The notes below the pieces were generated by a model. The model had not been told where the DNA came from and did not search any database. It was given only the letters and a program-made list of their open reading frames with translations. Below are positions 27,622-58,960 of a DNA stretch of 64,000 nucleotides, in pieces. Numbering within the stretch: position 1 is the first letter of the stretch; each line of letters opens with the position of its first letter. Both the position numbers and the translations under genes were made by a program. Source of the DNA: a virus. Taxonomy: Duplodnaviria; Heunggongvirae; Uroviricota; Caudoviricetes. The stretch spans positions 64,512-128,511 of IMG/VR virus record IMGVR_UViG_3300043568_002650, one strand, 5' to 3'.

Positions 27622-27631
27622 CTCTCTTTTA

Positions 27632-27649
27632 TAATAAATAACTAAAAGA
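27632..27649 (+). promoter_or_regulatory. late-promoter-like TAATAAATAACTAAAAGA
   Basis: Upstream of the GTG start at 27657. Confidence 0.4.
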
Positions 27650-27656
27650 TTTTTAA

Positions 27657-28091
27657 GTGTTAAAACATATCTTAGAAAGAGAAGAATTTTTTAGTCATGA
27701 TCTAGATTGGCAAGGGATAAGATTCGTGAGATTAGAATCTGAAGGAAGCCTAATGAATCTAGGAGTTATTCTTCCTGGAGAGGATATTCCTAATCCCGGA
27801 ATAGTATTAACCCTTCAGGTGATTCATGATTACCTATATCAACCTCACATAACCCTTGATGAAAACTTAAGACGCCGAGGTCTCGCGACTAAGATTTATC
27901 GAGCACTAATAGATAGACTTGGCCATCTCTATTCAGGTAAAGGCCGTCGTCAAAACCCAATGGTCGATAAGATCTGGGACAAACTAAAAAATGATCCAAC
28001 TATTGATTGTGCAAGTAGCTCTATTGGAGATGCTTGCTGGACTCTAGATAATCCTGATGGAGAAGATATTCGAGCATTTATAGAAGGATAA
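27657..28091 (+). CDS. GNAT-family acetyltransferase-like protein
   Basis: LRRRGLATKIYRALIDRLG resembles GNAT motif A. GTG start. Confidence 0.4.
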   Translation: MLKHILEREEFFSHDLDWQGIRFVRLESEGSLMNLGVILPGEDIPNPGIVLTLQVIHDYLYQPHITLDENLRRRGLATKIYRALIDRLGHLYSGKGRRQNPMVDKIWDKLKNDPTIDCASSSIGDACWTLDNPDGEDIRAFIEG

Positions 28092-28100
28092 ATAAAGTAT

Positions 28101-29228: not shown

Positions 29229-29235
29229 CTAAAAG

Positions 29236-29252
29236 ATAAATAATAAAAAAAC
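29236..29252 (+). promoter_or_regulatory. late-promoter-like GATAAATAATAAAAAAA
   Basis: 9 nt before ATG 29261. Confidence 0.45.
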
Positions 29253-29260
29253 TTAATACA

Positions 29261-30637: not shown

Positions 30638-30651
30638 ATTAAAGAGAAGAT

Positions 30652-31245
30652 ATGTTAAATTTTAATCAATGGTTAAACCACATTAATGAGAATACTGATG
30701 CTGTTTCAACAGTAGATAAGAATAATCTTACTGCAGTATTATCAGCAAGCGGATACGCAGTAGGCTCTGCTCCTTTTGAAATAGCAAAAATTATTGCAAC
30801 TAAAGAAGGCTGGGCGTCTAAACCAAATGGAGGAAAGGGTACGCGAGCATATCGTAATAATAATCCTGGAAATCTTGATGGAACTGACTTTAAAGACATT
30901 GATCCTGCAGTTACAGTTGAAACAATGTTAGACGGAACTAAAGGTCGATATGCTAAGTTTTCTAAACCTGAGCTTGGTGCAAAAGCTTTAATTGACAAGA
31001 AGATAATTAAATGGGCAAATGGAGGAATGCCTACAACTAGTGGAAATCAAACACTAATTGTTTCAAGTAAAGGAGGAAAAAAATATATTAAAGGCGAGAA
31101 GCCTACTGTGGCTCAATTCTTTTATACTTATGCTCCACCTAATGAGAACGATACTGAAGGTTATATTAGAGGATTTATTACAGCTGCTAAAAAGCTTAAA
31201 GCTGATGCAACTAGAGATACCCTAGTTGCTGATCTTCTTTCCTAA
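30652..31245 (+). CDS. hypothetical protein with N-terminal FNQWLNHINE motif (CTS-like)
   Basis: MLNFNQWLNHINENT N-terminus. 197 aa. Confidence 0.5.
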   Translation: MLNFNQWLNHINENTDAVSTVDKNNLTAVLSASGYAVGSAPFEIAKIIATKEGWASKPNGGKGTRAYRNNNPGNLDGTDFKDIDPAVTVETMLDGTKGRYAKFSKPELGAKALIDKKIIKWANGGMPTTSGNQTLIVSSKGGKKYIKGEKPTVAQFFYTYAPPNENDTEGYIRGFITAAKKLKADATRDTLVADLLS

Positions 31246-31661
31246 TCCTTAATTGAAATCTCAGGGTCGTACAGACGATGCATTAATTCTTGCTTATACA
31301 TTTCATTTGCAAAACTTTCACCCATTCCACGATCTTCGTTGTACTCAATACATGCAAGTAACCACTCATCACTCATCTTTGACATTGGTACCCAAGTAAG
31401 AGGTTGAGTACCATCTTTACCTCGACCGCCTCTGTGAAAACTTTCACGAATCACTTCAAATGGAGCATCTTCATAAACTGTTAGCTCTTCATATGGAGCA
31501 TCTTCATGAACAGTACGACGAAGATATTCACTACCTCCATCTACCATATATTCAAGACCATTTGCATCAGTATGTGTCACATAATCATGGCGGTGAATAG
31601 ATTTCAAGATAGTACCATCTGGCGTCTTGATTTGATTTAGGATAATTCGTTTATCTTCCAT
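31242..31661 (-). CDS. hypothetical protein
   Basis: 139-aa ORF. Confidence 0.4.
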   Translation of the reverse strand: MEDKRIILNQIKTPDGTILKSIHRHDYVTHTDANGLEYMVDGGSEYLRRTVHEDAPYEELTVYEDAPFEVIRESFHRGGRGKDGTQPLTWVPMSKMSDEWLLACIEYNEDRGMGESFANEMYKQELMHRLYDPEISIKD

Positions 31662-31662
31662 T

Positions 31663-31863
31663 TTAATTAATTGTTATTTTATATCTTACTTCAAAATCCT
31701 TTTTGGTTCCGAATTCGACCTTTCCAATTGAATATTCGTATGCATCTTCATGAACTATCATGTACATATCTCTAAATCCAGTCTTAATCACATGGATTAA
31801 TTCAGGTTCGTCTTCTAATTGAAAGCACTGTGCTGTGCTTGGTATTTCTTTCCAGGTTGTCAT
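31663..31863 (-). CDS. hypothetical small protein
   Basis: 66-aa ORF. Confidence 0.3.
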   Translation of the reverse strand: MTTWKEIPSTAQCFQLEDEPELIHVIKTGFRDMYMIVHEDAYEYSIGKVEFGTKKDFEVRYKITIN

Positions 31864-32282
31864 TTTTCGATAGTTGTTGAGTGTAAAATATATTCAGAAT
31901 TCTTGGTCTTGAAGTGAATCTTATGATATTCTTTAGACTTCTTATCTTCTAATATCTCTTTGACTCCAGTCGTCATCCAACCGAAACCTGAAGCAGAAGG
32001 CAAACCTTCAATATCTGGATTAATTGTATATGGATCTAAACATAGACTGAATCCTACTTGAGGTTCACCATGTAAAGCTTTACCTCTACCGTCTTCTGTC
32101 CATTCAACCCATATCAATCTTTTTCCAATATTGCTTCGTCCATCTCCGATCCTCTTAAGGAAGATTGGATAGTTACAAATATCACATTTGTTACATACAA
32201 TATCCTGCATCTTCTGACGATGAGGTGTAGGTTTTTCACAAGATTTACAGTATACTTTCATTTTCATTTTTATTAATTCCAA
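31860..32282 (-). CDS. zinc-finger protein
   Basis: CKSCEKPTPHRQKMQDIVCNKCDICNY carries multiple Cys pairs. Confidence 0.4.
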   Translation of the reverse strand: MELIKMKMKVYCKSCEKPTPHRQKMQDIVCNKCDICNYPIFLKRIGDGRSNIGKRLIWVEWTEDGRGKALHGEPQVGFSLCLDPYTINPDIEGLPSASGFGWMTTGVKEILEDKKSKEYHKIHFKTKNSEYILHSTTIEK

Positions 32283-32482
32283 TCATCTTCTACAGTTTCA
32301 CCTAATAGACACATAGCCGATGTACATAGATTCATACCTAAAATTTGGTTAGTGGTTTTCTCTTCCATGTACTTTTCAGAATAATCTCTAGCAACTGCTC
32401 TCCAACTATAGCCTTCGACTACTCGAAGATTCTTAATGAATTGAGCCTGTTCAAGAGTAATATCAATTGATTCGTATGTCAT
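32273..32482 (-). CDS. hypothetical small protein
   Basis: 69-aa ORF. Confidence 0.3.
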   Translation of the reverse strand: MTYESIDITLEQAQFIKNLRVVEGYSWRAVARDYSEKYMEEKTTNQILGMNLCTSAMCLLGETVEDDWN

Positions 32483-32550
32483 ATTAATGCTTCTTAACCC
32501 GAAAAAGAGCTTGCGGTTAGCAAGCTCTCGGTCGGTATATGAGTGACTGA

Positions 32551-34416
32551 TTACTCAGTCGGAGGAGTTACCTTTGCTGTAACATCAGTGATTACTTGTT
32601 TCTTTTCCTGGATCTGCTTTAACATTTCCATTCCAAGTAATCCATTGATTGCACCATTTCCATCATTACCTGAGATCAAGATCTCTGGGATAATTTTGAT
32701 TCCGTTAGTACCAATCATTTCAGTAACTTTTAATTTGCCAAAGTTATCTGCTCCCATTGCTTTAACCTGTTTCTCATAAGCTTCAGCAGTTGATTTACCG
32801 ATTGCTGCAATTTTACTTGCTTCAGCATCACCAGTAAGTTTAATTTGAGCCGCATCTGCTTCAGCCATCATCTTCTTAGCTTTGGCTTGAGCGCCAGCTT
32901 TTAATTCTAGTGCTTTTGCTTCACCTTCAGATCTCTTAACAGATGCTTCAGCTTCACGTTGTGAGATCTCTACTGATTGTTGAGCAGCAACCATTTTCCC
33001 TTGCATATCAGCTAGGGCTTTTGCAGATTCTAATGTCTTACGTTGATCTTGTGCCTTACGCTGAGTTTCGAAAGTTACCTCCTCTTCTTGAGCAATCTTA
33101 CGATCAGTAAGAGTTTTCATTAGGGATTCAGGTGGAGTAATATCACCAATTAAGGTATCTACTGCATGTACATTGTACTCGTCTAATACTCTACTGATAG
33201 ACTCTTTAGCTGCATTTTGTCGAGCTTGACGAGTAGTTAAGAATGCAATAACATCTGAGTCTTGAGCAGAGTTTCTAAAGTAGTTACCGATAGTTGGCTC
33301 TAATACTTGAGATACTAAGTTCTGCATTGATCCGAATCGTGCAATTACCTTTGGTGCTTCTGTTGCTGGGATATGTATGATTTGAGATACATCTAAGTTG
33401 AATGGGAAACCGTCTTTAGAACGTACTGTGATTGTACTTAATCCCTTGTCTAATTGATGAGACTCGTTTCGTGCATTCGCCCAGTTAAGTACTAGATTAG
33501 TTGTAGGTACAACTTCAATCTTATGAGTATATGGATTGATTGCATATTTTCCAGGATCAAGTGGAGTAATACATACACCCTTTTCACCTTTCTTCACGAT
33601 ATTACCGTGCTTAAAGGTTTCGCCAGTAGTGTCTACTCCTTCATCTCCAACATAAGAGATTACAACACCTACATGTCCAATAGGAATTTGAGTCATTGCG
33701 ACCTTTTCAACTTGTACTGCCCATGGGTTAAGAGAGTAATTACCCGCTTGAACTACTTGAGTCTGTAGACCACGTTGACCGTTATTTAATAAGAATGAAT
33801 CGAAATCTTGGAAGTTATTATGACCTTCGATTACTTTTCCAGCAATTGCACTCTGATCTAGTGGAACACCATCTAGTGCAGTCATTACCCCGACTTGACC
33901 ATCTTCAATATATGTAATATCAGTCATTGCTAAATCAAATAGGAATGGATTGATACGATATACACCATTATTTAAGTAACCAACTTGCTTACCTCGTTGA
34001 CCGCCATTTGTTAAGAATGCATGGGTGTCTTGGTAATTATCACACTCTACGTGTCGAGCTAGGATAGCACCGGTTGGTAGTTGTGCACCGTCTTTAGCAG
34101 ATAAGAGTCCAATCTTTCCTTGTGGAATAATCGTTAATGGTGACTGCTCAATTGAGAATTGCCATACCCAATAGAACCAATAGAGTCCAGGAGCTAAGGT
34201 GTCTGCTTGAAATCCAGGTTCACCATTAAGTGCAATAATCTTACCGTCAGGTAAGGATCTATTTGCTCCAAATAGAACGAATTTCTTAGTAACTAATCCA
34301 ATCTTGTCCTCTGGAATAATCACCATACCGAAAAATACTCTTAGTGTAAACTTGTAAAACACTAAAGCGATAAGTGGAATCGCCATCCATGCATAATTTA
34401 AAACTGTTTCTAACAT
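32551..34416 (-). CDS. flotillin / SPFH-family membrane protein (YqiK-like)
   Basis: N-terminal TM helices. Repeated GQRG.Q..V...G.Y..NP SPFH-type segments. C-terminal flotillin-like Ala/Glu/Lys coiled coil (EAEASVKRSEGEAKALELKAGAQAKAKKMMAEADAAQIKL) and a ...NGIKIIPE tail. Confidence 0.7.
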   Translation of the reverse strand: MLETVLNYAWMAIPLIALVFYKFTLRVFFGMVIIPEDKIGLVTKKFVLFGANRSLPDGKIIALNGEPGFQADTLAPGLYWFYWVWQFSIEQSPLTIIPQGKIGLLSAKDGAQLPTGAILARHVECDNYQDTHAFLTNGGQRGKQVGYLNNGVYRINPFLFDLAMTDITYIEDGQVGVMTALDGVPLDQSAIAGKVIEGHNNFQDFDSFLLNNGQRGLQTQVVQAGNYSLNPWAVQVEKVAMTQIPIGHVGVVISYVGDEGVDTTGETFKHGNIVKKGEKGVCITPLDPGKYAINPYTHKIEVVPTTNLVLNWANARNESHQLDKGLSTITVRSKDGFPFNLDVSQIIHIPATEAPKVIARFGSMQNLVSQVLEPTIGNYFRNSAQDSDVIAFLTTRQARQNAAKESISRVLDEYNVHAVDTLIGDITPPESLMKTLTDRKIAQEEEVTFETQRKAQDQRKTLESAKALADMQGKMVAAQQSVEISQREAEASVKRSEGEAKALELKAGAQAKAKKMMAEADAAQIKLTGDAEASKIAAIGKSTAEAYEKQVKAMGADNFGKLKVTEMIGTNGIKIIPEILISGNDGNGAINGLLGMEMLKQIQEKKQVITDVTAKVTPPTE

Positions 34417-34475
34417 TTGTTTAATTTAATTGATTTATATTATTATACTACTATTTGTCTAATGATAAAACTTTA

Positions 34476-35960
34476 TTATCCAATAAGTTTATCGATGTTA
34501 GACCGAACTTCGGTAAGAGTAGTCTCATTCAAGAATTTACCATCTTCATAGATAGTTTGCAAGATTCCAGTCTCTTCCTCTTCCCAAGAACATTGAGTGT
34601 GTACTTCATGATCTTCATCTACCATGATTAGACCCTTTAGGGATTTCTTAGTTCCATCATCAGTGATTGGATCTTTAAAAATATCATAAGCTTTACCATC
34701 AGCTTCGAACCATGCACCCTTAGCTGCAAATCCAAAAGTATCTCGAGTATTCATTTGATATGTGTATGAACCAACACCTAACACGATATTAGTTGAAGCA
34801 AATCCTTTAGCGGCTAATCGCTCATAGATTTGAATTTGGCGATCCAGTGTAATTGAGTCTCCATAGATTGCACCAATATGAGGATCTAGAACTTTGAATC
34901 CTTGTTCGTTGATTGTACCACCGAAGATATCCCATAGTAATTCGATAACGCCTTTATTTTGAGGTTCGTTTCTAGCCTCTTCACTTTCTCCATCAGGATC
35001 AAAACCGCCCCATCCACAAAGAATATCTACTGGATCTCCAGAGTCAGGGCGAATAACTAATTTACCTTCGCGAGACATAATTTGCTCCTTGTTTTCAGGC
35101 AAGTATTGAGTAATCAACGTCCATAAGTCAAAGGTATCGGATACAACTGAAAGAATTCCAGTAGGAAATTGATCCATAAAGTATTTCAACATTTGTGATT
35201 CACCCATTGTAAAGATACAAGTAGTTGATACTGAGTGTTCGGATGCATTTACAGAATTGATACTGACTTCGTTTTCTGGTTCTCCATAGAAGTATCGAGC
35301 TCCTGGAATCACAATAATTGAATCTGAGCCTCTGAAAGAGGTAGCGTGACCAAGTCCACTAGATAACATATCCCATGGGCTTAATCCTCTAGCACTAAAG
35401 TCATGAGCTAAGAAAGGAATCAACCATGCATTTGCTGGATCAGTCGTCATTACCCATTCAACAAGATTTCTTTTGTATTGAAGAGCAATAGTTGCGGATG
35501 TTGCAGGTTTCCATGCAAGAGAGGAGACAATTGTTTCTAGATAAAGAGTTAGCCAAGCAAATCCTGCAACAGTATTAACGAAAGTCATGTGAGGAACATT
35601 TGGACTTGTCTCAATTCCTTCAGGTAGAGCTTTAAAACGAATAGGCAAGTAACCTAGGTCATGTAGTTCACCAAAATGAGTAGAGTCAAACTCCATTCCT
35701 AGATACATTGACATGTCCTGACCAAACTTTAAAGCTTCGTCTTTAGGGAGACTGAAAAAATTCTCTTGATATTCGTCATGTAACCAACGAACTACTAGTT
35801 GCTGACCAAATGAAACAATTTTAGTAACACCTTTAGGCGCGTGTTTTGTGCTGCGAGGAATCCAGGTTCCATATAGGAAGTCTGTTCCTGGTGCTAGCAT
35901 TTTGCGATGGCCTATCTTGTATCCATCAGAATAAAAAAGCGTGATTGGTTTAAATGACAT
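34476..35960 (-). CDS. nadV: nicotinamide phosphoribosyltransferase family protein (NadV/NAMPT-like, or Namat-like)
   Basis: DGYKIGH (DSYKVTH), KALPEG, AHDFSARG, SVVSDTFD, VIRPDSGDPVD, AIYGDSI and FKDPITDDGTKKSLKGL all align with NAMPT hallmarks. Confidence 0.85.
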   Translation of the reverse strand: MSFKPITLFYSDGYKIGHRKMLAPGTDFLYGTWIPRSTKHAPKGVTKIVSFGQQLVVRWLHDEYQENFFSLPKDEALKFGQDMSMYLGMEFDSTHFGELHDLGYLPIRFKALPEGIETSPNVPHMTFVNTVAGFAWLTLYLETIVSSLAWKPATSATIALQYKRNLVEWVMTTDPANAWLIPFLAHDFSARGLSPWDMLSSGLGHATSFRGSDSIIVIPGARYFYGEPENEVSINSVNASEHSVSTTCIFTMGESQMLKYFMDQFPTGILSVVSDTFDLWTLITQYLPENKEQIMSREGKLVIRPDSGDPVDILCGWGGFDPDGESEEARNEPQNKGVIELLWDIFGGTINEQGFKVLDPHIGAIYGDSITLDRQIQIYERLAAKGFASTNIVLGVGSYTYQMNTRDTFGFAAKGAWFEADGKAYDIFKDPITDDGTKKSLKGLIMVDEDHEVHTQCSWEEEETGILQTIYEDGKFLNETTLTEVRSNIDKLIG

Positions 35961-35975
35961 ATTATAAATTTTTGA

Positions 35976-36470
35976 TTAGTTACTTGTGTTAATTAAATCG
36001 TCACGTAATTGAGTAAGTACTTCACCTAACCAGTTAGTACCTTTCCAATTCTTTGGATCGTGAATTTTCGGATCATCTTCAGATAAGCCGATTCCCCATA
36101 CAGTATCGTATGCTGCAGCCTCGACTAGAAGTGTTCCTTCTGTTTCTAATAAAAAAGCTAAGAGCTTAGGGTTCTGTGTAAATTTTAAGTAGCATCCATC
36201 ATAAACTATTTGCTTAGCGAATTCGTTCCAGATAGAAGAATCAAAATTCTTGACCTTTCGACCTAGTGCTTTTTGTTTACCTGGATCTTTTTCAAAAAGA
36301 ATATCTTCGAGAGTCTCATCATCACTGAATAGTCTAGCTTTTCCAGCCATCATCCATTGCTCAGAGCAATTGTATTCATTTCCTTCTTCATCTTCAAAAG
36401 TGCAAGGATGCCAATTTGAGAATGGGTTACGCGTCTTATAAAAGAACGTGTATTTTGTGTACTGTTTCAT
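35976..36470 (-). CDS. NADAR (YbiA-like) domain protein
   Basis: TFFYKTRNPFSNW, SEQWMMAGKARLF, LLVEAAAYDTVWGIG and GTNWLGEVLTQLR match the YbiA/NADAR family. Confidence 0.8.
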   Translation of the reverse strand: MKQYTKYTFFYKTRNPFSNWHPCTFEDEEGNEYNCSEQWMMAGKARLFSDDETLEDILFEKDPGKQKALGRKVKNFDSSIWNEFAKQIVYDGCYLKFTQNPKLLAFLLETEGTLLVEAAAYDTVWGIGLSEDDPKIHDPKNWKGTNWLGEVLTQLRDDLINTSN

Positions 36471-36664
36471 ACTGTTTCGTTTTTGTTTGATGATAATGTC
36501 AAGCAGACTTTACTGCCAGCAAATCTGTTCCACTTTTTTGTTTGTATTTGGACAACGTCCGAAATTGCTGATTGTAATTTAATTGTAAATTCTTTAAGGT
36601 GTACACAATCATATATACCCATACTTTCAACTTCAATCTCAATAGTTATTTTTCGTTTTGACAT
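36467..36664 (-). CDS. hypothetical small protein
   Basis: 65-aa ORF within the operon. Confidence 0.3.
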   Translation of the reverse strand: MSKRKITIEIEVESMGIYDCVHLKEFTIKLQSAISDVVQIQTKKWNRFAGSKVCLTLSSNKNETV

Positions 36665-36667
36665 TAT

Positions 36668-37006
36668 TTAGTTATTAAAGTTCTTATAAAAATCTTTTCC
36701 CGAGCCAGTAACATATTGAACTGATAGTCCAGTCGGGGTATGTAGTTCAACAAACATTGGGTTTCCAGAATAGGTACATACTTGCGTAACATACTCTAGG
36801 TTTTTTATCTCAGTTAGAAAATTTCTATTTTCTCCTAAGATCTTTAGCGAAGCATCAGTGAGATCTAATTCGTTTGATATTGTGATCTCTATGCAGTATT
36901 CGCCAGTAGCGATTGCTCGAAAGTCGCTTAATGCAGGTTTGTCATGTTTATCCACTCCAGTGTAGGTAATATTGATTGATATCTGCTTGTGCAAGAACGT
37001 GTTCAC
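36668..37006 (-). CDS. hypothetical protein
   Basis: 112-aa ORF. It overlaps the upstream gene's 3' end by 59 nt. Confidence 0.35.
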   Translation of the reverse strand: MNTFLHKQISINITYTGVDKHDKPALSDFRAIATGEYCIEITISNELDLTDASLKILGENRNFLTEIKNLEYVTQVCTYSGNPMFVELHTPTGLSVQYVTGSGKDFYKNFNN

Positions 37007-37727
37007 AAGTCGCTTTCACAATTTCAAGAGCTTGGATATACCATGAGTTGTCGCTTTCAGTCACGACATACATGCAATCACGTTCTCTAAGGAGTGTAGA
37101 CTTTCCAGGTATAATCGCTAAGACTTTAAGTGGTTCAGCCATATAGAACTCACCAGTCTTATTAGAGTAGTTTGAGTTAAGTCTATTTTCTCGACTAGTC
37201 TCATCGATAAAAGCACTAAGTGCAGCAAACTCAGATTTTATGTCAGGTTCACTAAAAATATTTGTCGAGACTGTGTTTACTCGATATGCACCTTTCTCTT
37301 TAAATAGAGCGATTATTTTAGTTACTCTAGTTAAAGCATCTTGCCAGTTAGGTTGAAACGTATACTCTTCATCCTCTTTTTGAAAGATATCATGTATTGT
37401 AGGTAGTCCTAAATTGCGTAGTATTCTCTCAAGTCCACCAGAATTATATGAGCTTCTGAAGTAGCCTATTTTGAAATAGTGATCAGGATAATCTGGATGA
37501 GGTAACTCTATACACTCCTTACCTGCCTTATCGTCTCCCCACTGGTCAAGTCCTAGACTCTCAGCAAATTCTTTCTCCTTTGTACGAAGTTCATCTTTTA
37601 CCTCTTGTGCCATTGAATCGTATTCGTGACCTTTCCATAGTTTTTCTGAAAATTCTTCGTATTCTTTCTCAAGTCTTTGAGTCTTTTCAAAATCCTGATA
37701 CTTATAAAGATAAATGTCTAATCCCAT
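36948..37727 (-). CDS. hypothetical 259-aa protein within the NAD/ADP-ribose operon
   Basis: Long ORF with no motif recognised. Confidence 0.45.
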   Translation of the reverse strand: MGLDIYLYKYQDFEKTQRLEKEYEEFSEKLWKGHEYDSMAQEVKDELRTKEKEFAESLGLDQWGDDKAGKECIELPHPDYPDHYFKIGYFRSSYNSGGLERILRNLGLPTIHDIFQKEDEEYTFQPNWQDALTRVTKIIALFKEKGAYRVNTVSTNIFSEPDIKSEFAALSAFIDETSRENRLNSNYSNKTGEFYMAEPLKVLAIIPGKSTLLRERDCMYVVTESDNSWYIQALEIVKATCEHVLAQADINQYYLHWSG

Positions 37728-37775
37728 TATAGTGTTATTTATAGATACTATACTAAATTATAGAGAAATTAAAAA

Positions 37776-38309
37776 CTATTGTACATAATTGACTATTGTC
37801 ACTTCACAAAACCAGAGTTCAGTCTCAATAATCTTTTCAATCCTTTCCCAGTCTCCTCCAGCAAGACCTGCACCAATCTTTGGTAGCCCAATATGTTTGC
37901 CTCCAAATAGGTTATTGATTTTTCGCATACACAAGGTAAATGCTTCATAATCGAATGGAGCAGTTGCACCATCTTTATGATTACGACCGTACTTATATTG
38001 AGTATATGCATTTACTACAATTAGCTCAGGTTCATTACGATTATTTTTTGCATCTTCGAGTGACCAAATAGCCTTTTCGCCAAGTACAACTGTTTTATAG
38101 TCGATATTACCTAACTTGTTGATATCTCGACCTAAGAGTTCCATCTCAAATCGATCGCAGCCAAAAGCTTTTGCCATTTGTGGAGCAATACCAGCTCCCA
38201 TAGTACTCATGCAATTACAGCCATGTGCAATCACATCAAACTTGCCCTCTTTAGCAAGCTGGATCAAGTCTCCATCTATCCTATTCATCTGCATCCTCGA
38301 TTGAAGCAA
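37776..38309 (-). CDS. macro domain (ADP-ribose binding/processing) protein
   Basis: GDLIQLAKEGKFDVIAHGCNCMSTMGAGIAPQMAKAF resembles GDIT-LAVDAIVNAAN..LGGGGVDGAIHRAAG. Later IGAGLAGGDW resembles the second macro phosphate-binding loop. Confidence 0.6.
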   Translation of the reverse strand: MLQSRMQMNRIDGDLIQLAKEGKFDVIAHGCNCMSTMGAGIAPQMAKAFGCDRFEMELLGRDINKLGNIDYKTVVLGEKAIWSLEDAKNNRNEPELIVVNAYTQYKYGRNHKDGATAPFDYEAFTLCMRKINNLFGGKHIGLPKIGAGLAGGDWERIEKIIETELWFCEVTIVNYVQ

Positions 38310-38475
38310 TTATTGTTCTCTCAATTGGATAACAGCAAACAAGTTTACTATCCGCATAGAATGCATAGTAACCACTAGAAGTGCCACTATTTGTGGTAGT
38401 ACTAAAGTTTTCTGCAAACGCGGTGTATCGACATTCACGATCGCCAATCATTACAATTAACTGATACTTATTCAT
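38281..38475 (-). CDS. hypothetical small protein (start moved to the internal Met MNKYQ)
   Basis: This ATG overlaps the stop of the upstream gene (GATGAATAA). The longer 38535 start would overlap by 68 nt. Confidence 0.3.
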   Translation of the reverse strand: MNKYQLIVMIGDRECRYTAFAENFSTTTNSGTSSGYYAFYADSKLVCCYPIERTIIASIEDADE

Positions 38476-38668
38476 CTTCGTCTTTCTTTTTTGGAAAATC
38501 TCCATCTGCATCGCAGTGAGCTGGAGGATATCCATGTGTACTAATGTTGAGGTGTCTCCAGAAACGGTTCCATACTCTAAATAAAAAGTTTAGGGGTACT
38601 GAAATTAGGATGAGTACTCCAATAAATGTCCAGAATGATCTGAACGTAAATTCTAAAAAATCCATCAT
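38468..38668 (-). CDS. small membrane protein
   Basis: 66 aa with a TM helix FWTFIGVLILISVPLNFLF. Confidence 0.35.
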   Translation of the reverse strand: MMDFLEFTFRSFWTFIGVLILISVPLNFLFRVWNRFWRHLNISTHGYPPAHCDADGDFPKKKDEDE

Positions 38669-39138
38669 ATTAATTCTTTGTTTTTAATGTCTTCTAATAA
38701 TTCGTCTAACTTTTCATAGTTAGGTATTCCATATCGTTCACATACGATATCAACGTTGCCTTTTCTCCAAAAGCCAGTCGGGCAGCATACTAGCATCCTC
38801 CCAGAATCTGCAAACTTACCGAATTCAAGTAGAGAGATCGGTGATTTTGTGTCTGGAGAAAAATACATGATTATCAAGTCAGCTTTCTCTAACGCAGTTA
38901 ATTCCCAGTTTACTTGCTGATAAAATTGAGGATTTGTTATACTCTGTGGCCAGCTTGAATCCCATTCATCTCGTCGAGGATTAAGAATAGCAATATCTTT
39001 GGGATACTTTTTAAAGTAGTTCTCGACTAGGGTTTGCCAGTCTTCTGCAATTCCCATTTCAATACTGCCAGCTAGGAAGATAGTCCGGATATTTGCGCCA
39101 GCTTTACTTATTGGATACGGCGGTTTGATTACTTTCAT
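38665..39138 (-). CDS. nucleoside 2-deoxyribosyltransferase-like (DNPH1/Rcl-type) protein
   Basis: 157 aa. IFLAGSIEMG...ILNPRRDEW...ADLIIMYF pattern resembles the N-deoxyribosyltransferase fold. Motif-level call only. Confidence 0.4.
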   Translation of the reverse strand: MKVIKPPYPISKAGANIRTIFLAGSIEMGIAEDWQTLVENYFKKYPKDIAILNPRRDEWDSSWPQSITNPQFYQQVNWELTALEKADLIIMYFSPDTKSPISLLEFGKFADSGRMLVCCPTGFWRKGNVDIVCERYGIPNYEKLDELLEDIKNKELI

Positions 39139-39139
39139 A

Positions 39140-40033
39140 TTAAAATATATTAAATTGGGTTAAGAAGCTATTATCGACTGTGTAATCTGAATATTCGTCG
39201 ACTTTAATATCCTTGACACTATTTGTACAGTAAACACCAGTAAAATAGTTGGAAAGTTCAAGTAGACCAGCTGAAAATATTCCATGAGTGACAATCAAGT
39301 AGATTTTATCACCAAATAAGTCTCGCGGTCTCTGTTCGCGAATAGCTTTTGCAACTTCAATAAATGTTCGACCTCCGTCACAAATATCGTCGATGATTAC
39401 AAAGTTTTTTCCACGAGAACCATCGATGTGTGGAAGTTCAGTGTGTAGGATCTTGCCTGTGGTCAAGTCTCTGACTTTAGATGCAGTCGCAACTTCTCTG
39501 ATATCAAAATGCTTAGCTACTCCATATATCTTTTTAAGTGCACCGGCGTCTGGCGAAATAATACATATCTTTTCTCGAGCAGCATTCGTATTATCAATTG
39601 AGGTAAGAGCAGCTTTGATTAGACTATAGTTGTCTATCTTATCTAGCCGATCAATACATGCTTCGATTACGTCAGAGTGAGGATCTAGGACTAGGACTCC
39701 TTTATAGTGCTGCGCATTAATAATTGGAGCAACAACATCCTTGATATAATTGATTGAGCCCTCTTCGAACTTACGATCACTACGACCGCCTAAGAAGTAT
39801 GGAATATAGAGAAAAATATCAGTCATTCCCATATTCTTTAGAGCGGCAGTTGCACAAAGAATAAGTTCAAGATCCTGAAAGCTAGTAAATCTTGAATAGA
39901 TCTTAATTGCAATTTCAGATGCTACACCTGAAGTTATCTTAATAGACTGCTGACCATCAGGAAATTTTGTTTTCTCGAACTTAATATCTGATTTCTCAGG
40001 ATATGCGAGATTAAGTGTGCTAATTTTTGACAT
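39140..40033 (-). CDS. prs: ribose-phosphate pyrophosphokinase family protein (Prs-like; could be ADPR-PP synthetase)
   Basis: IPYFLGGRSDRK (IPYFGYARQDRR), LVLDPHSDVIEACID (DLHAEQIQGFFD), ISPDAGALKK, NFVIIDDICDGGRT (VLVDDMIDTGGT) and THGIFS (THPIFS). Confidence 0.85.
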   Translation of the reverse strand: MSKISTLNLAYPEKSDIKFEKTKFPDGQQSIKITSGVASEIAIKIYSRFTSFQDLELILCATAALKNMGMTDIFLYIPYFLGGRSDRKFEEGSINYIKDVVAPIINAQHYKGVLVLDPHSDVIEACIDRLDKIDNYSLIKAALTSIDNTNAAREKICIISPDAGALKKIYGVAKHFDIREVATASKVRDLTTGKILHTELPHIDGSRGKNFVIIDDICDGGRTFIEVAKAIREQRPRDLFGDKIYLIVTHGIFSAGLLELSNYFTGVYCTNSVKDIKVDEYSDYTVDNSFLTQFNIF

Positions 40034-52275: not shown

Positions 52276-53994
52276 TTAAAGTTGCCCTTCTGCGCCAGTT
52301 TCTCCGCCTTCTTTTACTTCTCCACCGCCTTCTGCTGGTGCTTCTCCTCCTGGAGCTGGTGCGGCTCCTCCACCTGGTGCTCCTCCAGCTGGCATTGCTC
52401 CTCCAGCAGGTGGAGCGGCTTCGGCTTCTTCAGTATCTGCTTGTTGATCAAACCATGATTGATTAGACTTAATATCAGACTCATTCATTTTAAGTTCTTC
52501 TCTAATTAAGTACTCAGTAGCGAAGTATGGAGTACCATCATCTTTCATTACTCCTTTCTTAGCTTGGAATGCAGCTATTCTCTTAGCTTCGATCTCATTC
52601 TTCTTCATCTCTTCAAATACGTTATCGTTATTGTATTTAAGTCCAATCGCATTATTAAATTTATAATCGTCTGCAATATCAGGAAAATCTAGACACATTT
52701 GTAGATACCATGGTTTTACCATCATTTCTGAAAAGGCTGATCTTAATCTATTAACAAATTTCTGATACCGTACCTCTTCACGAGTAATACCTTCAGCATT
52801 AAGAGTAAATGCACCCATTCCAGATTGACCTTCCCATCTTGAATAAGGAATCTTTGAATCCATTTTTAATTTCTTATAGAAATAGTTTAATAATTCTGAA
52901 CCAGATAAGTTTGGACCAGGGGTCTGCAAGGTCTCAATTTTTACTGATTGATTTTGATCATTGACTGGTAGAATATAGTTTTTATAGAATAGGATATTTG
53001 GTTTACCATCAACTTGAAGTTCTCCAGAATCACCATTAAAGTTAATATCCTCCTTAAACATGTTTAGGAATTCACGAACGTCCTCTTGGCCTTTTTGAAA
53101 ACTCTTACTCCCGATTGGAACAGTAGTTGTTAAACGAATCGGCGCATTCATTACGTGCCATATAACTTTACTGTGTTCAATAATTCTCAATAGGTTAAAT
53201 GATCTAATTAGACGTTCAACGAAACTTACTCTCTTTGTTCTAAAGTGATTAGCGTATGAAATATAGATGATTTGTGAGTCATTAAGAACTCGAGTCGAAC
53301 CTGTTTGCTGATCATATTGTAACCACTGCATAAAGATCTTGCCTTTAGCATCCTTCTGTAATTGTGGCGCAATACTGGCGGGATCAAGTTCCTTAAATCC
53401 AATTATCTCTTTAGGCTTTTCCAAGTTATCATAGATGATCTCAAAAGAGAGATGGCCTTCAACTAAGAATTGAAACGCATACTGCCAAGCTGAAATACCT
53501 TCAGCAAATCCCCAAGCAGTATACATTCTTTCAAAGTTATCATTATATTTTCTAAGAACCTTCTCTTGAAAATTTAAACGTTCTTCTTTTGTATCTCCAT
53601 GGTAAAGCATTTTACCAGTAAGATCCTTAGGATAGATAAAGCGTTGTTCTTCATCATACACAATCATGTCATCCACGATAGTCTCAAGAATAAACTCGAT
53701 TTCACCATTTGCTGCAACATCTCTTAGTCGCTCTCTTTTTACTACATAATCTAATTGAAAGAATGCAATTGCCTTTGTTCTTAGCTGAGAAGTAGTATCA
53801 GATATTGCCATTGAGAACTTAAGAAGGTCGTCATTTGCATTTAATCTAGAAGTACGAGACTGTAATTGACCTTCAATGAAACCAATTGCTTGTGAATTTT
53901 TAAGTAAAAGATCTTCATGTCTAGTACCAAACTTACTTAAGTTCGATAGAGCACTACTTACTTTTCTTCCTGATGTATCTAAGAATCCACTCAT
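52276..53994 (-). CDS. g20: portal vertex protein (gp20-like)
   Basis: 572 aa. Central region pattern (...WHVMNAPIRL...YILPVNDQ...KIPYSRW) parallels T4 gp20. Acidic Gly/Ala/Pro-rich C-terminus. Confidence 0.6.
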   Translation of the reverse strand: MSGFLDTSGRKVSSALSNLSKFGTRHEDLLLKNSQAIGFIEGQLQSRTSRLNANDDLLKFSMAISDTTSQLRTKAIAFFQLDYVVKRERLRDVAANGEIEFILETIVDDMIVYDEEQRFIYPKDLTGKMLYHGDTKEERLNFQEKVLRKYNDNFERMYTAWGFAEGISAWQYAFQFLVEGHLSFEIIYDNLEKPKEIIGFKELDPASIAPQLQKDAKGKIFMQWLQYDQQTGSTRVLNDSQIIYISYANHFRTKRVSFVERLIRSFNLLRIIEHSKVIWHVMNAPIRLTTTVPIGSKSFQKGQEDVREFLNMFKEDINFNGDSGELQVDGKPNILFYKNYILPVNDQNQSVKIETLQTPGPNLSGSELLNYFYKKLKMDSKIPYSRWEGQSGMGAFTLNAEGITREEVRYQKFVNRLRSAFSEMMVKPWYLQMCLDFPDIADDYKFNNAIGLKYNNDNVFEEMKKNEIEAKRIAAFQAKKGVMKDDGTPYFATEYLIREELKMNESDIKSNQSWFDQQADTEEAEAAPPAGGAMPAGGAPGGGAAPAPGGEAPAEGGGEVKEGGETGAEGQL

Positions 53995-54731
53995 ATATTA
54001 TTATTATTATTTTTTTTCCATAAATACCCACCAGCATGGTCTAGAGTTCCAGCAACACAGCCTTGAATACTAGACTTTGGTATTCCAGTAAGTCGAACGG
54101 CTTCACTAATAGATGTAAATGTATTAATATACACTGTGTCTTTCGATAACTGAACGACACTTATTTTATTTTTAATATTATTTGTTTTTCTAGAAGAGTA
54201 ATTTGAATTTTTATGGATTTTCATATTTTCATATTTCCATATAAATCCGCCAGCTTCATTTCTAGATCCACGACAACAACTAGAAATATGATAAATATTT
54301 AAAGAACGTTGAGCAAATGCTGCAGATTTCCACCAACCTACTAATTCTCCAGATTTTGAATATTGTAAAACTGGTTTTTCTCTAGATGGATATTCTTTAA
54401 GTTTTAGAATATATGCTTCCCTAGATTCAGAATATGCAATTGAAGATATTTTAATTAAATTATGATTAATGTTTCGTAAATTACACATTCGATAAAATGC
54501 ATGAAGCATTGAAATGCGTGAATTAAAATCTATTGAGTTTTCATATATTCTCCATAACAACCAATGTGCAATGAAGTGTTCTCGTGCAGTTAAATAGACA
54601 ATATTTTCAGGATCATCATTTCCTCCAAGTGATCTAGGTATAATATGATGTTTTTCATAATATTGATCATGAGAAGTCGGTCGATTTTTTCGAGTAACTA
54701 TTAATGAATTATAATGTCTTTGATAATCCAT
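53991..54731 (-). CDS. HNH homing endonuclease with two C-terminal AGG[FY]xWK DNA-binding repeats
   Basis: EKHHIIPRSLGGNDDPENIVYLTAREHFIAHW is a canonical HNH motif. AGGFIWKYEN and AGGYLWKKNN repeats. Confidence 0.7.
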   Translation of the reverse strand: MDYQRHYNSLIVTRKNRPTSHDQYYEKHHIIPRSLGGNDDPENIVYLTAREHFIAHWLLWRIYENSIDFNSRISMLHAFYRMCNLRNINHNLIKISSIAYSESREAYILKLKEYPSREKPVLQYSKSGELVGWWKSAAFAQRSLNIYHISSCCRGSRNEAGGFIWKYENMKIHKNSNYSSRKTNNIKNKISVVQLSKDTVYINTFTSISEAVRLTGIPKSSIQGCVAGTLDHAGGYLWKKNNNNNI

Positions 54732-55361: not shown

Positions 55362-55862
55362 TTACACCTTATTGAACAGAAAGTTTTCTGTTATTATGCC
55401 AAATCGCATATTATTATTTTTTGCATATACTTTGGCTGCCTTAAATTTTGCATCATTAATAATATATGCCTTAGCGTGACGAGCATAATTAAGAGTAGCC
55501 TTCTCAGTAAGTCGATTTGGTGGTTCGGGCGGACTAAGATACTTTTGAGGTTTTACTTCAATTAGCCATTTAGTGATCTCACCTTCAGGTGATTTAGTGG
55601 CCATATAACAGTCGACCCAATAAGTAGATTCCTTTTTAAGGATAGGGTTCCAGTATTTTATTGGCATGGGTTCTGAAGCGTATTCAACAACTGCATCTGT
55701 GTTATCGCAATAGGTTAAAAATTTAAGTTCCCAACTTGATCGATAAATTATCTTAGTTATGTCGCCAGAATATTTTTCAGGATACATTGGAGTAAAGTAT
55801 CCCTGTTTGACTCTACCGTGTTGCGGCTTTAGAAAATCATGTATGTTTCTTTCTGCTTTCAT
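55362..55862 (-). CDS. hypothetical protein
   Basis: 166 aa. AATAAATAATTAAT late-like motif upstream on the minus strand. Confidence 0.4.
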   Translation of the reverse strand: MKAERNIHDFLKPQHGRVKQGYFTPMYPEKYSGDITKIIYRSSWELKFLTYCDNTDAVVEYASEPMPIKYWNPILKKESTYWVDCYMATKSPEGEITKWLIEVKPQKYLSPPEPPNRLTEKATLNYARHAKAYIINDAKFKAAKVYAKNNNMRFGIITENFLFNKV

Positions 55863-56279: not shown

Positions 56280-57413
56280 TTACACATATAGTAAATCTAG
56301 TGGAGATTCGGAAAAGTATTGTAGAACAAACTCATTAAACTGATCAAAAGTAAGAGACTTATCGTGTTTTAACATAAACGAATATAGATCATTCACATCT
56401 TTAATTAGTCGAACACTTCTATAATCTTCACTATATTTTTTTCGAAGATCTGCCATTACTTTATTCCATAGGAATACTTGATAACCTTTTTTGATTAGTT
56501 CAATAGATTGAGTCTTACCAGCAAGGTCACTATCGAATAGGATTAGGGTGTTTGATTTACTTAATAGGTTCTCCAATAGAAGTTTACTCTTAGAGATACC
56601 AGTAGTGGCGATTGAGTTATTCAGGAACATTGCATCAATTTGACCCTCAGTTACTAGGATAGGCTTTGTAAAATCAACATTCAATACATTAAAGTAATTA
56701 TTAATTGAATCAATATCAGATATTATATCGTCTTCTACGTTTCGGACAAGACCATTCTTTTTTAATTCAGAATAGTTTTTAATTAGGTATTTTGGCCCAG
56801 TGATATCTTCACCGATTCGACGTATTGCAAAACCAAGTATCTTACCAGTTCGATAATCTATATTAAAAAGATATACTTTATCCTCTCTTGAATCAAAATA
56901 ACTACACCTTTGAAATGCAGGGAGAGTATCAAGTGCGCGATTTTTTATGAATAGTCCAAGTTCAGTATCTGGATCAATCTCACTACATGGAGTTAATGAA
57001 AATCGGTGAGCTACTTCTTCTATTTTTAAGAGGTGATCACTTGCGTTCTTATTAATTAAGAGCTCGATTAATGAGCCTCTCTTCTTTTTAGAAGTTTGAG
57101 GAACCCACTCTTCTTTTGCATTAACCTCAGGTATTCCTAGTGAATATTTAAGTGCAAATTTAGAGATAAACTTAGGAATATCAGATTTTACACCACATCC
57201 ATCATTATAGCATTTGTAGAATCCGCGATCAGGATATATGTTTCCTCTCTTTTTTCTAGAGTCTGATTTGGAATCTCCGCAATATGGGCAGGCGAAATTA
57301 ATCTTATCACCAGATTCATATACTTCCTGTTTAAATCGATCATCTGGAAATCTCTTCTTTAGGACATCCTTTATGAAAGCGTGTATATTGTATCCAGTTA
57401 ACAAATTAATCAT
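56280..57413 (-). CDS. g61: DNA primase (T4 gp61-like; zinc ribbon + TOPRIM)
   Basis: ACPYCGDSKSDSRKKRGNIYP...YKCYNDGCG matches gp61 CPVCGDSKTDQNKARGWYY...CYNC. LVTEGQIDAMF is the TOPRIM acidic motif. Confidence 0.8.
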   Translation of the reverse strand: MINLLTGYNIHAFIKDVLKKRFPDDRFKQEVYESGDKINFACPYCGDSKSDSRKKRGNIYPDRGFYKCYNDGCGVKSDIPKFISKFALKYSLGIPEVNAKEEWVPQTSKKKRGSLIELLINKNASDHLLKIEEVAHRFSLTPCSEIDPDTELGLFIKNRALDTLPAFQRCSYFDSREDKVYLFNIDYRTGKILGFAIRRIGEDITGPKYLIKNYSELKKNGLVRNVEDDIISDIDSINNYFNVLNVDFTKPILVTEGQIDAMFLNNSIATTGISKSKLLLENLLSKSNTLILFDSDLAGKTQSIELIKKGYQVFLWNKVMADLRKKYSEDYRSVRLIKDVNDLYSFMLKHDKSLTFDQFNEFVLQYFSESPLDLLYV

Positions 57414-58842
57414 TTTCTTCTTCCTCTAATACGGGAACAAGATTAGATTTTTCCTTCTTCTTGATCATCCTTTTTAAATACTTATCGAGTTCTGGCTTAG
57501 GAACAATTGTGGTATTTAGACCATATCGAGTAATAACTCCCAAATATTCTTGGAAGTCTTCTTCTGGAATATCGGCATCTGCATTTCCTATGACTTTCCA
57601 GAATTTTTCTGGGACTTCAACATATTCTAGTGTCTCCTGATCAACTATGTATAACGGAAATATCTCAGCATCAGTAAGTACCTTCTTGCTTTTTACTGTT
57701 ACTAACTCTACTGTTCTCTTTAAGTTTGAATCAAGAGAACTGATCTTCATTGCAGTCAATAATCGATTAATAGGTTCAATAATTAGTGAAAAGAATTGAG
57801 AGTCAATATCCATAAGTAGAGCGATCTCATCAGGATAGGTTCCAGGAGAGTATGCAAATACATCATGACCTCCTTCATTAGATGCAGGATTACAGTAATA
57901 AAATTTTATTTTATCACCTTCTCTAATCTTTGGATATTTTTCAACTAGTCCAGTAGTAATTAAAGTATGATTATAAATTGCAGCTGCTCTAGGAAAGATT
58001 GATATTCCTTTTCTGAGTTCAAGTTTAGCTTCACTAGCAACATACTTATTATAGACTCTAATTCTAAAGTTAAAGGCTAGATCATCTGGATGAAGACTAA
58101 GTGCTTCATTCTTTAGATCTAACAGTCGAGGAATAATATCTTTTTCTAAGTCAAGTCTTTTACCGCGATCCATAACAAAGGAGGTAAGCTCAGTAAGTTT
58201 ATTTCGAGCCCAGATAGGGTATGAACCCTTAACTGGTTCTAGACCTTTTATTATTAAGTATCTCTTATCTTGTGGTTCTAGCTCATAATTTGGGTTTGGC
58301 TCATATGCTACTCTAATAGCATAGTTTTTCTTTTTTAGCCAAATACCAGTCTCAGAAAGATTTTCAAGTTTAAACTTAAGTCGGTTCTTAGTATTAAAAA
58401 CTCTTCCATATTTCTCAAAGCACATATCAAAATAACTAGATAGACGATATCGATCAATACTAATACAGATATTTAAAGCTTCGTCTTTTGAAAAATCAGC
58501 GCCAATTATTGAATCAAGGGCAGAGTCAAACTGTACATAAATTGAGTCAGTATCAGTATAGATTGCAGCTTCTGCTTCAATCTTATTAATAGTGTATTGA
58601 TCAATTCCAAGCAATTTGTGTAGCTCAGTATCAAGATGCCACTTTTCTAAAAAATAATGGTTTACTGCTTTAATCGAAAACTTGATTAGATCTTGTCCTT
58701 GTAGAGTGATGGACTGTGCAATATCTGGGTTGTAAAAATAGAACCACTTATTTCCAAATGCACCATAAATTGAGTTAATTAGGATCTTTATCGCATTCTG
58801 CTTCAGATCAAGTTTTTTGATATTTTTTGCTTTATCTTCCAT
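57406..58842 (-). CDS. g43: family-B DNA polymerase, C-terminal fragment only (gp43-like; motifs B and C and thumb)
   Basis: KILINSIYGAFGN (motif B, KxxxNSxYG) at residues 19-31. ITLQGQ. IYTDTDSIYV (motif C). The ORF starts 18 aa before motif B, and upstream is an intergenic region followed by a + strand gene. Confidence 0.85.
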   Translation of the reverse strand: MEDKAKNIKKLDLKQNAIKILINSIYGAFGNKWFYFYNPDIAQSITLQGQDLIKFSIKAVNHYFLEKWHLDTELHKLLGIDQYTINKIEAEAAIYTDTDSIYVQFDSALDSIIGADFSKDEALNICISIDRYRLSSYFDMCFEKYGRVFNTKNRLKFKLENLSETGIWLKKKNYAIRVAYEPNPNYELEPQDKRYLIIKGLEPVKGSYPIWARNKLTELTSFVMDRGKRLDLEKDIIPRLLDLKNEALSLHPDDLAFNFRIRVYNKYVASEAKLELRKGISIFPRAAAIYNHTLITTGLVEKYPKIREGDKIKFYYCNPASNEGGHDVFAYSPGTYPDEIALLMDIDSQFFSLIIEPINRLLTAMKISSLDSNLKRTVELVTVKSKKVLTDAEIFPLYIVDQETLEYVEVPEKFWKVIGNADADIPEEDFQEYLGVITRYGLNTTIVPKPELDKYLKRMIKKKEKSNLVPVLEEEEND

Positions 58843-58933
58843 ATAATTTTATACTAGTCTGAGCTAATCTAGTTTCAGATATGACTATAATACTAAATCT
58901 TTAGTAGACATTAAATACTAGTTTGACCACATC

Positions 58934-58951
58934 GAAATAAATAACAAAAAG
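58934..58951 (+). promoter_or_regulatory. late-promoter-like GAAATAAATAACAAAAAG
   Basis: 9 nt before ATG 58961. Confidence 0.45.
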
Positions 58952-58960
58952 AAGTTTGGT

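Follow-up and report, generated by a model that had tools for sequence, protein, structure and literature searches.

How does a phage replicate its genome when the only family-B DNA polymerase (polB) gene in sight starts in the middle of the enzyme? This question is raised by the 64,000-nucleotide stretch analysed here (the window; positions 64,512 to 128,511 of IMG/VR record IMGVR_UViG_3300043568_002650), in which an open reading frame (ORF) for the C-terminal part of a polymerase lies next to a primase gene. By the ORF listing and the sequence itself, it occupies 57406..58842 on the minus strand and has an ATG start (MEDKAKNIKKLDLKQNAIKILINSIYGAFGN) and a length of 478 amino acids (aa). As the original prediction had stated, it begins 18 codons before the KxxxNSxYG motif, the motif B lysine being residue 19, and contains DTDS, within IYTDTDSIYV at residues 94-103. 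We consider it probable, at about 0.8, that this ORF encodes one subunit of a heterodimeric T4-type family-B replicase, called 43B below, and that its N-terminal partner, 43A, is encoded elsewhere and assembles with it non-covalently. A heterodimeric replicase had already been proposed from the truncated ORF, and it is also the best reading of the domain content together with a complementary 43A family. The features of the locus are as follows.

57406..58842, minus strand: predicted gene encoding the "43B-type" (C-terminal) subunit of a split T4-like family-B DNA polymerase (ORF, Pfam, PHROGs, AlphaFold2, and the ratio of nonsynonymous to synonymous substitution rates, dN/dS)
58699..58842, minus strand: residues 1-48, fingers helix P and motif B region (mapping to Protein Data Bank (PDB) structures, alignment A1)
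58762..58788, minus strand: motif B, KILINSIYG, residues 19-27, invariant in the clade alignment A3 and aligned with RB69 K560-G568
58543..58560, minus strand: motif C, YTDTDS, residues 95-100, with the catalytic aspartates, aligned with RB69 YGDTDS
58321..58335, minus strand: KKKNY, residues 170-174, counterpart of the polB KKRY primer-terminus motif, aligned with Syn30 AKKRY and RB69 GKKRYAL
57409..57705, minus strand: clade-specific C-terminal extension, residues ~380-478 (alignment, conservation, AlphaFold2)
58843..58960, no strand: 118-bp divergent intergenic spacer 5' of 43B, with stops in all six frames
56280..57413, minus strand: gp61-type DNA primase gene (phrog_47, E=2e-22)

Profile and sequence comparisons revealed how much of a polymerase the ORF contains. 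The Pfam DNA_pol_B profile (PF00136) was matched only over residues 7-107, corresponding to profile positions 146-238 of 453 (E=1e-14). In PHROGs, 43B covered positions 500-840 of the full-length polymerase family phrog_262 (856 positions). It also matched phrog_1918, a 382-position family of stand-alone polymerases, from end to end (residues 4-368 on positions 28-369, E=2.3e-59), and the scores for the two families were nearly equal. The gp43 proteins of cyanophage Syn30 and pelagiphage Mosig aligned with 43B from their residue ~481-485 to their end at 32% identity, the Syn30 match spanning residues 485-828. The ORF carries motif B, motif C, a KKxY-type motif, the palm and the thumb, and K172 and Y174 of its KKKNY were invariant in the clade alignment. 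Exonuclease motifs I-III and motif A (DxxSLYPS) were absent from 43B by Pfam, alignment and PDB mapping, and PF03104 gave no match. Pfam, PHROGs, the alignment and the AlphaFold2 model therefore agree with the earlier description of a C-terminal fragment with motifs B and C and the thumb beside the primase. In family-B polymerases, motif A supplies one catalytic aspartate and the steric-gate tyrosine. Because both are missing, 43B cannot be a complete polymerase alone, and on its sequence content the ORF would be a subunit rather than an entire polB.

The position of the break was examined against known structures. A phmmer search of the PDB aligned residues 18-19 of 43B with RB69 residues 559-560, and residue 9 with KOD/Tgo residue 477, which places Met1 near residue 542 of RB69 and near residue 469 of Pfu/KOD. 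By this mapping and alignment A1, 43B begins at the start of fingers helix P, directly after the fingertip loop. The break lies at the fingertip, between fingers helices N and P. A split site inside the fingers or palm had been thought mechanistically interesting; the site proved to be the already known fingertip N/P position and not a new one in the palm.

An AlphaFold2 model of 43B, built from a 54-sequence alignment, had a mean predicted local distance difference test score (pLDDT) of 81. It was confident over residues ~50-467 (pLDDT >80) and matched the palm and thumb of RB69 and T4 gp43 over ~370 columns with a probability of 1.00. Residues 1-48 scored between 36 and 48. This low confidence might be attributed to helix P being modeled without its packing partner, helix N, although the model is only suggestive on this point. 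The C-terminal extension of ~100 aa comprised a small alpha/beta domain (pLDDT 83-90, residues 380-467), a basic stretch and the acidic tail LEEEEND. It was missing from Syn30, Mosig and LR756504 in the alignment, and the RB69 and T4 structures covered ~370 of the 478 model residues. Within the clade, the extension was conserved, with the motifs EVPEKFWK, YGLNT and KYLKR. The segment corresponding to the usual clamp-binding C-terminus aligned internally in 43B (SSLDSNL). Clamp binding and subunit docking are candidate roles for the extension.

A protein family that complements 43B was found among phage sequences. A scan of IMG/VR with a T4-type motif A signature gave at least 119 matches, and six of those listed were stand-alone N-terminal ORFs. 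Proteins of this 43A family stop 65-93 residues past motif A, just after helix N. A first database search, at E<=1e-10, yielded 1141 clusters, and a second one, at E<=1e-30, yielded 2189. Essentially all clusters were 455-465 aa long and carried PF03104 and a partial PF00136, and the stand-alone ORFs ranged from 455 to 522 aa overall. The PF00136 match of 43A covers profile positions 19-140 and that of 43B starts at 146; therefore, 43A and 43B are abutting halves. At loci L176 and L218, two 43A proteins of 458 and 468 aa with divergent sequences lay between a mazG-like gene and nrdB, and no C-half was present in the ~2.7 kb downstream covered by each locus. In related phages, 43A sits in a conserved module of mazG-like gene, 43A, nrdB/nrdA, ligase and topoisomerase. 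Another signature of the 43A family is FDFASLYP..MRQWNISPE. The Exo II motif of 43A reads TGWNFxx[FY]DW, as against GWNxxx[FY]DxPY in the Syn30/Mosig type. It was invariant across 43A subgroups only ~38% identical to each other (e.g. L176 8434-8463; L425 3001-4488), and when IMG/VR was scanned with this signature, ~118 of the 120 proteins among the matches listed were stand-alone.

Both halves could be located in other genomes, and every relative that we could check in a complete or long record had a 43A. In a sister group with ~160-kb contigs, whose 43B is 36% identical to that of the window, 43B lies ~4 kb downstream of 43A, and at locus L275 only ~70 bp separate the two. In the cultured Chryseobacterium phage MA9V-1 (OR050627.1, L414 19968-24921), two genes intervene and the halves are separated by 2.2 kb. 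They are annotated as different enzymes, the 495-aa one as "DNA polymerase II" and the 425-aa one as "DNA polymerase family B", a pitfall for annotation. The complete 636-kb genome LR756504 encodes a stand-alone 43A of 495 aa at 255,869-257,356 on the plus strand and a 43B of 408 aa at ~537,992-539,218 on the minus strand, ~281 kb away. The gap is ~221 kb in Lak-A2, ~132 kb in LR756502, ~13 kb in LR756500 and ~6 kb in the Lak-B phages. In CACVGE010000001.1 (252.8 kb), 43A lies at 233 kb, nrdA and nrdB come after it, and there is no 43B less than 10 kb away. Distant halves do occur, in complete genomes of more distant relatives.

The split also proved to be common. An exhaustive search of 1.84 billion cluster representatives yielded 2513 relatives of 43B. 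The best 150 of these comprised 113 stand-alone C-halves, 11-12 full-length proteins and 25 fragments or variants, and the split form is therefore the rule among the nearest relatives of 43B. It is clade-wide and old, not sporadic. The original prediction had described split gene 43 as known from only a few T4-like phages and some archaea, which is true of the literature searched but not of the sequence data.

These observations suggest how the enzyme might be put together. In the proposed heterodimer, 43B would supply fingers helix P with motif B for binding of the deoxynucleoside triphosphate, the second half of the palm with motif C and its two catalytic aspartates, the KKxxY primer-contact motif, the thumb and the lineage-specific C-terminal domain. 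The N-terminal domain, the 3'-5' exonuclease, motif A and fingers helix N would come from 43A (~460 aa), encoded by a separate, non-adjacent gene. The two chains would assemble non-covalently, with helices N and P pairing as the fingers hairpin and the palm halves completing one beta-sheet. The product would be an enzyme with both polymerase and proofreading activity, for which phage 25 and split Pfu provide precedents. By analogy with these, a two-chain enzyme would be active in this lineage as well.

The search for the N-half of this phage bears directly on this proposal. It had been predicted that the N-terminal, exonuclease and motif A parts are encoded elsewhere. Nothing of the kind lies upstream of 43B, and another polypeptide must provide them; the presence of a 43A gene in this genome, at a non-adjacent position, is what we infer. 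Several results weigh against the two-subunit interpretation. The tblastn probes were residues 1-480 of Syn30 and Mosig gp43 and, later, the 43A proteins of L176 and L218. The gp43 N-terminal ORF, which the original prediction proposed to look for in the genome, was not found across ~83 kb, consisting of the 64-kb window and its exact-sequence extensions (about -9.6 kb to +73.7 kb). It was also not found within +-10 kb of 43B in 59 relatives, nor in a further ~10 kb per side in relatives, nor in ~100 kb of the close relatives of this phage. The Pfam matches of the called genes in the 19-40 kb part of the window and in the extensions likewise included no N-half. The rightward extension, anchored on a 649-aa protein, enters a baseplate and tail module, and the leftward one, anchored on a sigma factor, contains early genes and no polB. 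The partner gene would therefore have to be at least 15 kb off on the 5' side or at least 67 kb off on the 3' side. In addition, among the matches listed and the cluster member lists, no contig carried both a 43B of this clade and a 43A.

One candidate partner emerged from co-occurrence. P0473, a 462-aa 43A, shares JGI (Joint Genome Institute) sample 3300059473 with the exact 43B and with another exact window protein. It is also present in sister samples and runs, on contigs with a GC content of 0.35. Its cluster, P0212, has 35 members, the most in any 43A cluster examined, compared with 43 in the cluster of the window's 43B. This is only suggestive of P0473 as the partner. The co-occurrence with 43B rests on one shared sample, which counts against the pairing, the P0473 contigs could not be chained to the window either physically or by proteins, and GC content and tetranucleotide correlation did not discriminate among these AT-rich phages.

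Two other leads were rejected. The 43A protein P0617 is encoded on a 22,247-bp contig, the same size as the 43B contig of L049; this was a coincidence, as the contig came from another sample and had no 43B. Large window ORFs devoid of Pfam matches were considered as divergent partners, for example one of 927 aa, and gave no polB or exonuclease signal in Pfam or PHROGs. The 927-aa ORF (12024-14807, plus strand) has no match in either collection and is divergent from an AAA+ ATPase gene with a weak clamp-loader-like match. Scans of the window with Pfam and PHROGs detected no other replicative polymerase.

Other explanations of the locus were weighed against these data. If the stops and the spacer were a sequencing or assembly artefact, the real gene would be a continuous full-length polB, and we regard the chance of this as practically nil. 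No fewer than five assemblies made independently, from three JGI samples and two Logan runs, contain the exact 478-aa 43B, and in them it keeps the same divergent upstream gene and downstream primase. The predicted 118-bp spacer was confirmed in six frames, with an in-frame stop 3 codons 5' of the 43B ATG, and tblastn with gp43 N-halves and the six-frame stops revealed no coding capacity and no polB remnant in it. Beyond the spacer, a plus strand gene without assigned function begins at 58961, divergent from 43B. The protein database contained 479 clusters homologous to 43B at E<=1e-10, the best 120 of which were 57-96% identical to it and nearly all 455-492 aa long; one homologue is named "DNA polymerase subunit B [uncultured Caudovirales phage]" at NCBI. 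Hundreds of homologues measure 470-480 aa. In IMG/VR, 43B was found at 55 loci on contigs of up to 207 kb, and the database members were on contigs of 250-275 kb. A 43B with 92% identity is encoded at ~139-140.6 kb of NCBI record LR796916.1, which is 250,308 bp long. The N-terminus MED..IKKLDLKQNAIK was kept in 14 of 14 relatives (51-91% identity), 13 of which have an in-frame stop 1-15 codons 5' of the start. The gene might instead be a decaying remnant of an abandoned polymerase, for instance one whose work another replicase took over, as the presence of only half a polymerase and the missing partner in ~83 kb could be taken to imply. This too is extremely improbable, given a dN/dS of 0.03-0.06 in comparison with relatives 88-91% identical (dS >1, with synonymous sites near saturation) and catalytic motifs of the C-half that are all invariant across a clade of 51-96% identity. 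43B is under purifying selection. There was no sign of relaxed selection, nor of frequent frameshifts or stops in relatives, and the coupling to the primase, the confident AlphaFold2 fold and the lack of a rival polymerase in the window also speak against decay. Assembly error, which the original prediction had named as one possible refutation, and pseudogene decay are both excluded by the repeated assemblies, the same-length homologues, the conserved start and the dN/dS values.

The remaining alternatives accept 43B as a functional gene. The C-half could do without a canonical 43A: it might act by itself in some role other than polymerization, or its partner might be non-homologous or highly divergent and bring in the missing aspartate and exonuclease. 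In support of this, many searches detected no 43A for this clade, the lineage-specific C-terminal domain could dock another partner, and phiKZ-like phages have their exonuclease on a separate ORF (PMC3201878). We nevertheless judge it improbable. The missing motif A aspartate and sugar-steric gate must come from somewhere, and the abundant 43A family ends exactly where 43B starts and occurs in the same samples and the same genome-size class. Moreover, 43A was found in all complete-genome relatives examined, and only about a third of the ~250-kb genome is covered here. Another possibility is that the halves are joined covalently into a single chain, by split-intein trans-splicing at the A/B junction or by mRNA recoding. 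Split inteins do occur in this clade, one of them breaking the 43B of locus L031 at motif C between an N-intein (IntN) and a C-intein (IntC) fragment, and "fractured genes" of such a type are known (PMC2677866). We consider this very improbable for the window's gene, as its N-terminus, MEDKAKNIKK, lacks both an IntC block and a terminal HN with Ser, Thr or Cys after it. Neither the window's 43B nor the 43A proteins gave an intein match in Pfam, and the 43A proteins end in a helical lysine-rich tail and not in an IntN. Neither a homing endonuclease nor an intein was present at the A/B junction in this phage, so the intein-remnant check proposed in the original prediction provides no objection to the split. 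Most of the refuting tests suggested there thus failed to overturn it.

Inteins and homing elements were nevertheless observed elsewhere in the clade. In L031 (8042-11140; IMGVR_UViG_3300021093_000252), the split 43B consists of three ORFs. The first encodes residues 1-101 and an N-intein fragment, the middle one a 392-aa protein with a weak restriction-endonuclease-like match, and the third a C-intein fragment of ~45 aa (...ILVHN/SIYV) followed by residues 99-477. The same break at motif C was seen in L030, P0032, P0062 and P0073; these are close relatives, with 86-88% identity. Together with 43A, such phages would have a three-gene polymerase, a "fractured gene" arrangement. Contiguous inteins at motif C (DTD/S ... 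HN/S), the classical polB intein insertion point, were present in P0037, P0103, P0106 and P0109 (636-653 aa) and in Lak-A2 (L070 5887-8038). The window contains a free-standing HNH and NUMOD homing endonuclease gene (53991-54731, minus strand), whose stop overlaps the start of the portal gene. Its product and the HNH endonuclease encoded directly after 43A in L176/L253 share 56% identity over 107 aa. In L431 (11223-14146; JGI 3300013094 Ga0164297_10001784), the nrdA gene beside 43A is fragmented into pieces with weak intein-splicing matches, which points to another fractured replication gene within this module.

The ATG of the primase gene overlaps the stop codon of 43B (ATGATTAA); therefore, the two genes are translationally coupled, and the pairing was present in every relative inspected. 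The window as a whole has a T4-like context, with gp20 portal, UvsW, gp61-type primase, gp13 and PhoH inside it and baseplate genes just outside, and by this gene content it belongs to a T4-like phage. The claim that the spacer carries promoters for both 43B and the divergent gene was not borne out. TAGTATAAA, proposed as a -10 element, is literally present in the sequence, but a sigma-70 consensus scan found no site in the 118-bp spacer for either gene, the region contained fewer sigma-70 sites than shuffled sequences (6 vs 8.2), and the repeated ACTAGTAT word was not enriched in the window (3 vs 3.2 expected). No Shine-Dalgarno-like sequence precedes the 43B ATG (58843-58865, minus strand), and a phage-encoded sigma-70-family factor lies just left of the window (L065 695-1414). 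These two observations hint at a host that does not rely on Shine-Dalgarno sequences, for example one of the Bacteroidota, and at phage-specific promoters.

Some other genes of the window deserve mention. At 55362-55862, between the genes for primase and portal, the minus strand encodes a protein of 166 aa that starts with a TnsA-like endonuclease N-terminal domain (E=7e-17). Genes resembling those of NAD and nucleotide salvage are clustered in 27115-40033. They include genes for a NAPRTase (34476-35960), a phosphoribosyltransferase (39140-40033), two NADAR-domain proteins and a nucleoside deoxyribosyltransferase-like protein (38665-39138). The same region also encodes a 621-aa SPFH/Band 7 protein (32551-34416).

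Comparison with known split polymerases shows which features of this locus are familiar. Bicistronic gp43, encoded as 43A and 43B, has been described in the T4-related phages 133, 44RR, 31, 25 and 65 (Petrov et al. 2006, 2010, as summarized in PMC3061061 and PMC2988022), and the two cistrons are 2 bp to 3 kb apart at one locus. The 43A and 43B proteins of phage 25 co-purify and are active (PMC2988022). Like these, the polymerase of the window would be a polB-type replicase cut at the fingertip into two independently translated chains without an intein. Unlike them, its upstream neighbour is divergent, no 43A is found in the nearest 15 kb or more on one side and the nearest 67 kb or more on the other, and 43B is in an operon with the primase gene. 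One descriptive feature of the bicistronic group, adjacency within 3 kb, is thus absent here. The T4-related gp43s in the phage collection, from cyanophage and pelagiphage, differ from it further, 43B being only ~32% identical to them and having the additional C-terminal domain.

Other parallels exist. Pfu polymerase engineered as two chains split at 467/468 (Hansen et al. 2011) is active as a heterodimer and behaves like the wild type (PMC3061061). The structural break is the same, in that Met1 of 43B corresponds to about residue 469 of KOD/Pfu; unlike the split described here, that of Pfu is artificial and archaeal and relies on termination-reinitiation from one bicistronic mRNA. In Methanothermobacter thermautotrophicus (Kelman et al. 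1999, cited in PMC3061061), the PolB fragments are encoded 85 kb apart and assemble into an active enzyme. The halves are likewise encoded by distant genes, whereas that split lies in the palm, ~83 residues C-terminal of the fingertip site, in a cellular archaeal enzyme. In MA9V-1, the Lak megaphages and LR756500-LR756504, the polymerase is divided into 43A and 43B in the same way and at the same point. The TGWNFxx[FY]DW Exo II signature is also carried by 43A of the LR7565xx huge phages, and the 43B proteins of all these phages are only 25-33% identical to that of the window. The split NrdA of Aeromonas phage Aeh1 and the "fractured genes" (PMC3045599, PMC2677866) are similar as essential replication enzymes made in separate pieces. 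Such genes are often associated with homing endonucleases, whereas the A/B junction of this phage has neither these nor an intein; it is the relatives that have a fractured 43B or nrdA.

The biochemical principle is already known from phage 25 and split Pfu, and no new mechanism is revealed here. The polB of these jumbo phages has been termed "classic family B" (PMC7824862), a PolB survey is silent on the split (PMC7544198), and two polymerase virus orthologous groups stand without comment among the core genes in a study of jumbo phages from freshwater (PMC12619734). In the literature searched, we found no account of phage polB halves lying far apart. Noteworthy points are how widespread the split is, how far apart the halves can be and how split inteins break the gene up further; they matter for annotation and marker-gene work.

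A more far-reaching interpretation would see the dispersed 43A/43B arrangement as an ancient design that defines a lineage, and not as an accident that is tolerated. This lineage would be a very large set of T4-related phages of jumbo and huge size, to which the Lak megaphages and the phages with the largest known genomes belong. In such a design, the replicase would be built from separately transcribed modules, with 43B co-translated with the primase and 43A embedded in a nucleotide-supply module (mazG-like gene, nrdAB), and assembly would be gated by timing or stoichiometry. The clade-specific C-terminal domain of 43B would provide a new contact, for instance to the primase, to the clamp or to 43A. 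We regard this full interpretation as speculative and, on present data, unlikely.

Split gp43 has so far been treated as a curiosity of a few Aeromonas and Acinetobacter phages with adjacent cistrons. Our results indicate that a two-gene family-B replicase split at the fingertip is normal in a very large, mostly uncultured T4-related group, which comprises 250-kb freshwater phages, a cultured Chryseobacterium phage, the Lak megaphages and huge phages of 460-735 kb. The halves can be up to ~280 kb apart and may be on opposite strands. Phylogenies and marker surveys based on polB mis-handle such phages, in that half genes are called fragments or are counted as two polymerases, and annotation pipelines label the halves inconsistently. 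These phages provide natural test cases for the assembly of a replicase in trans and for its regulation through the expression of its subunits.

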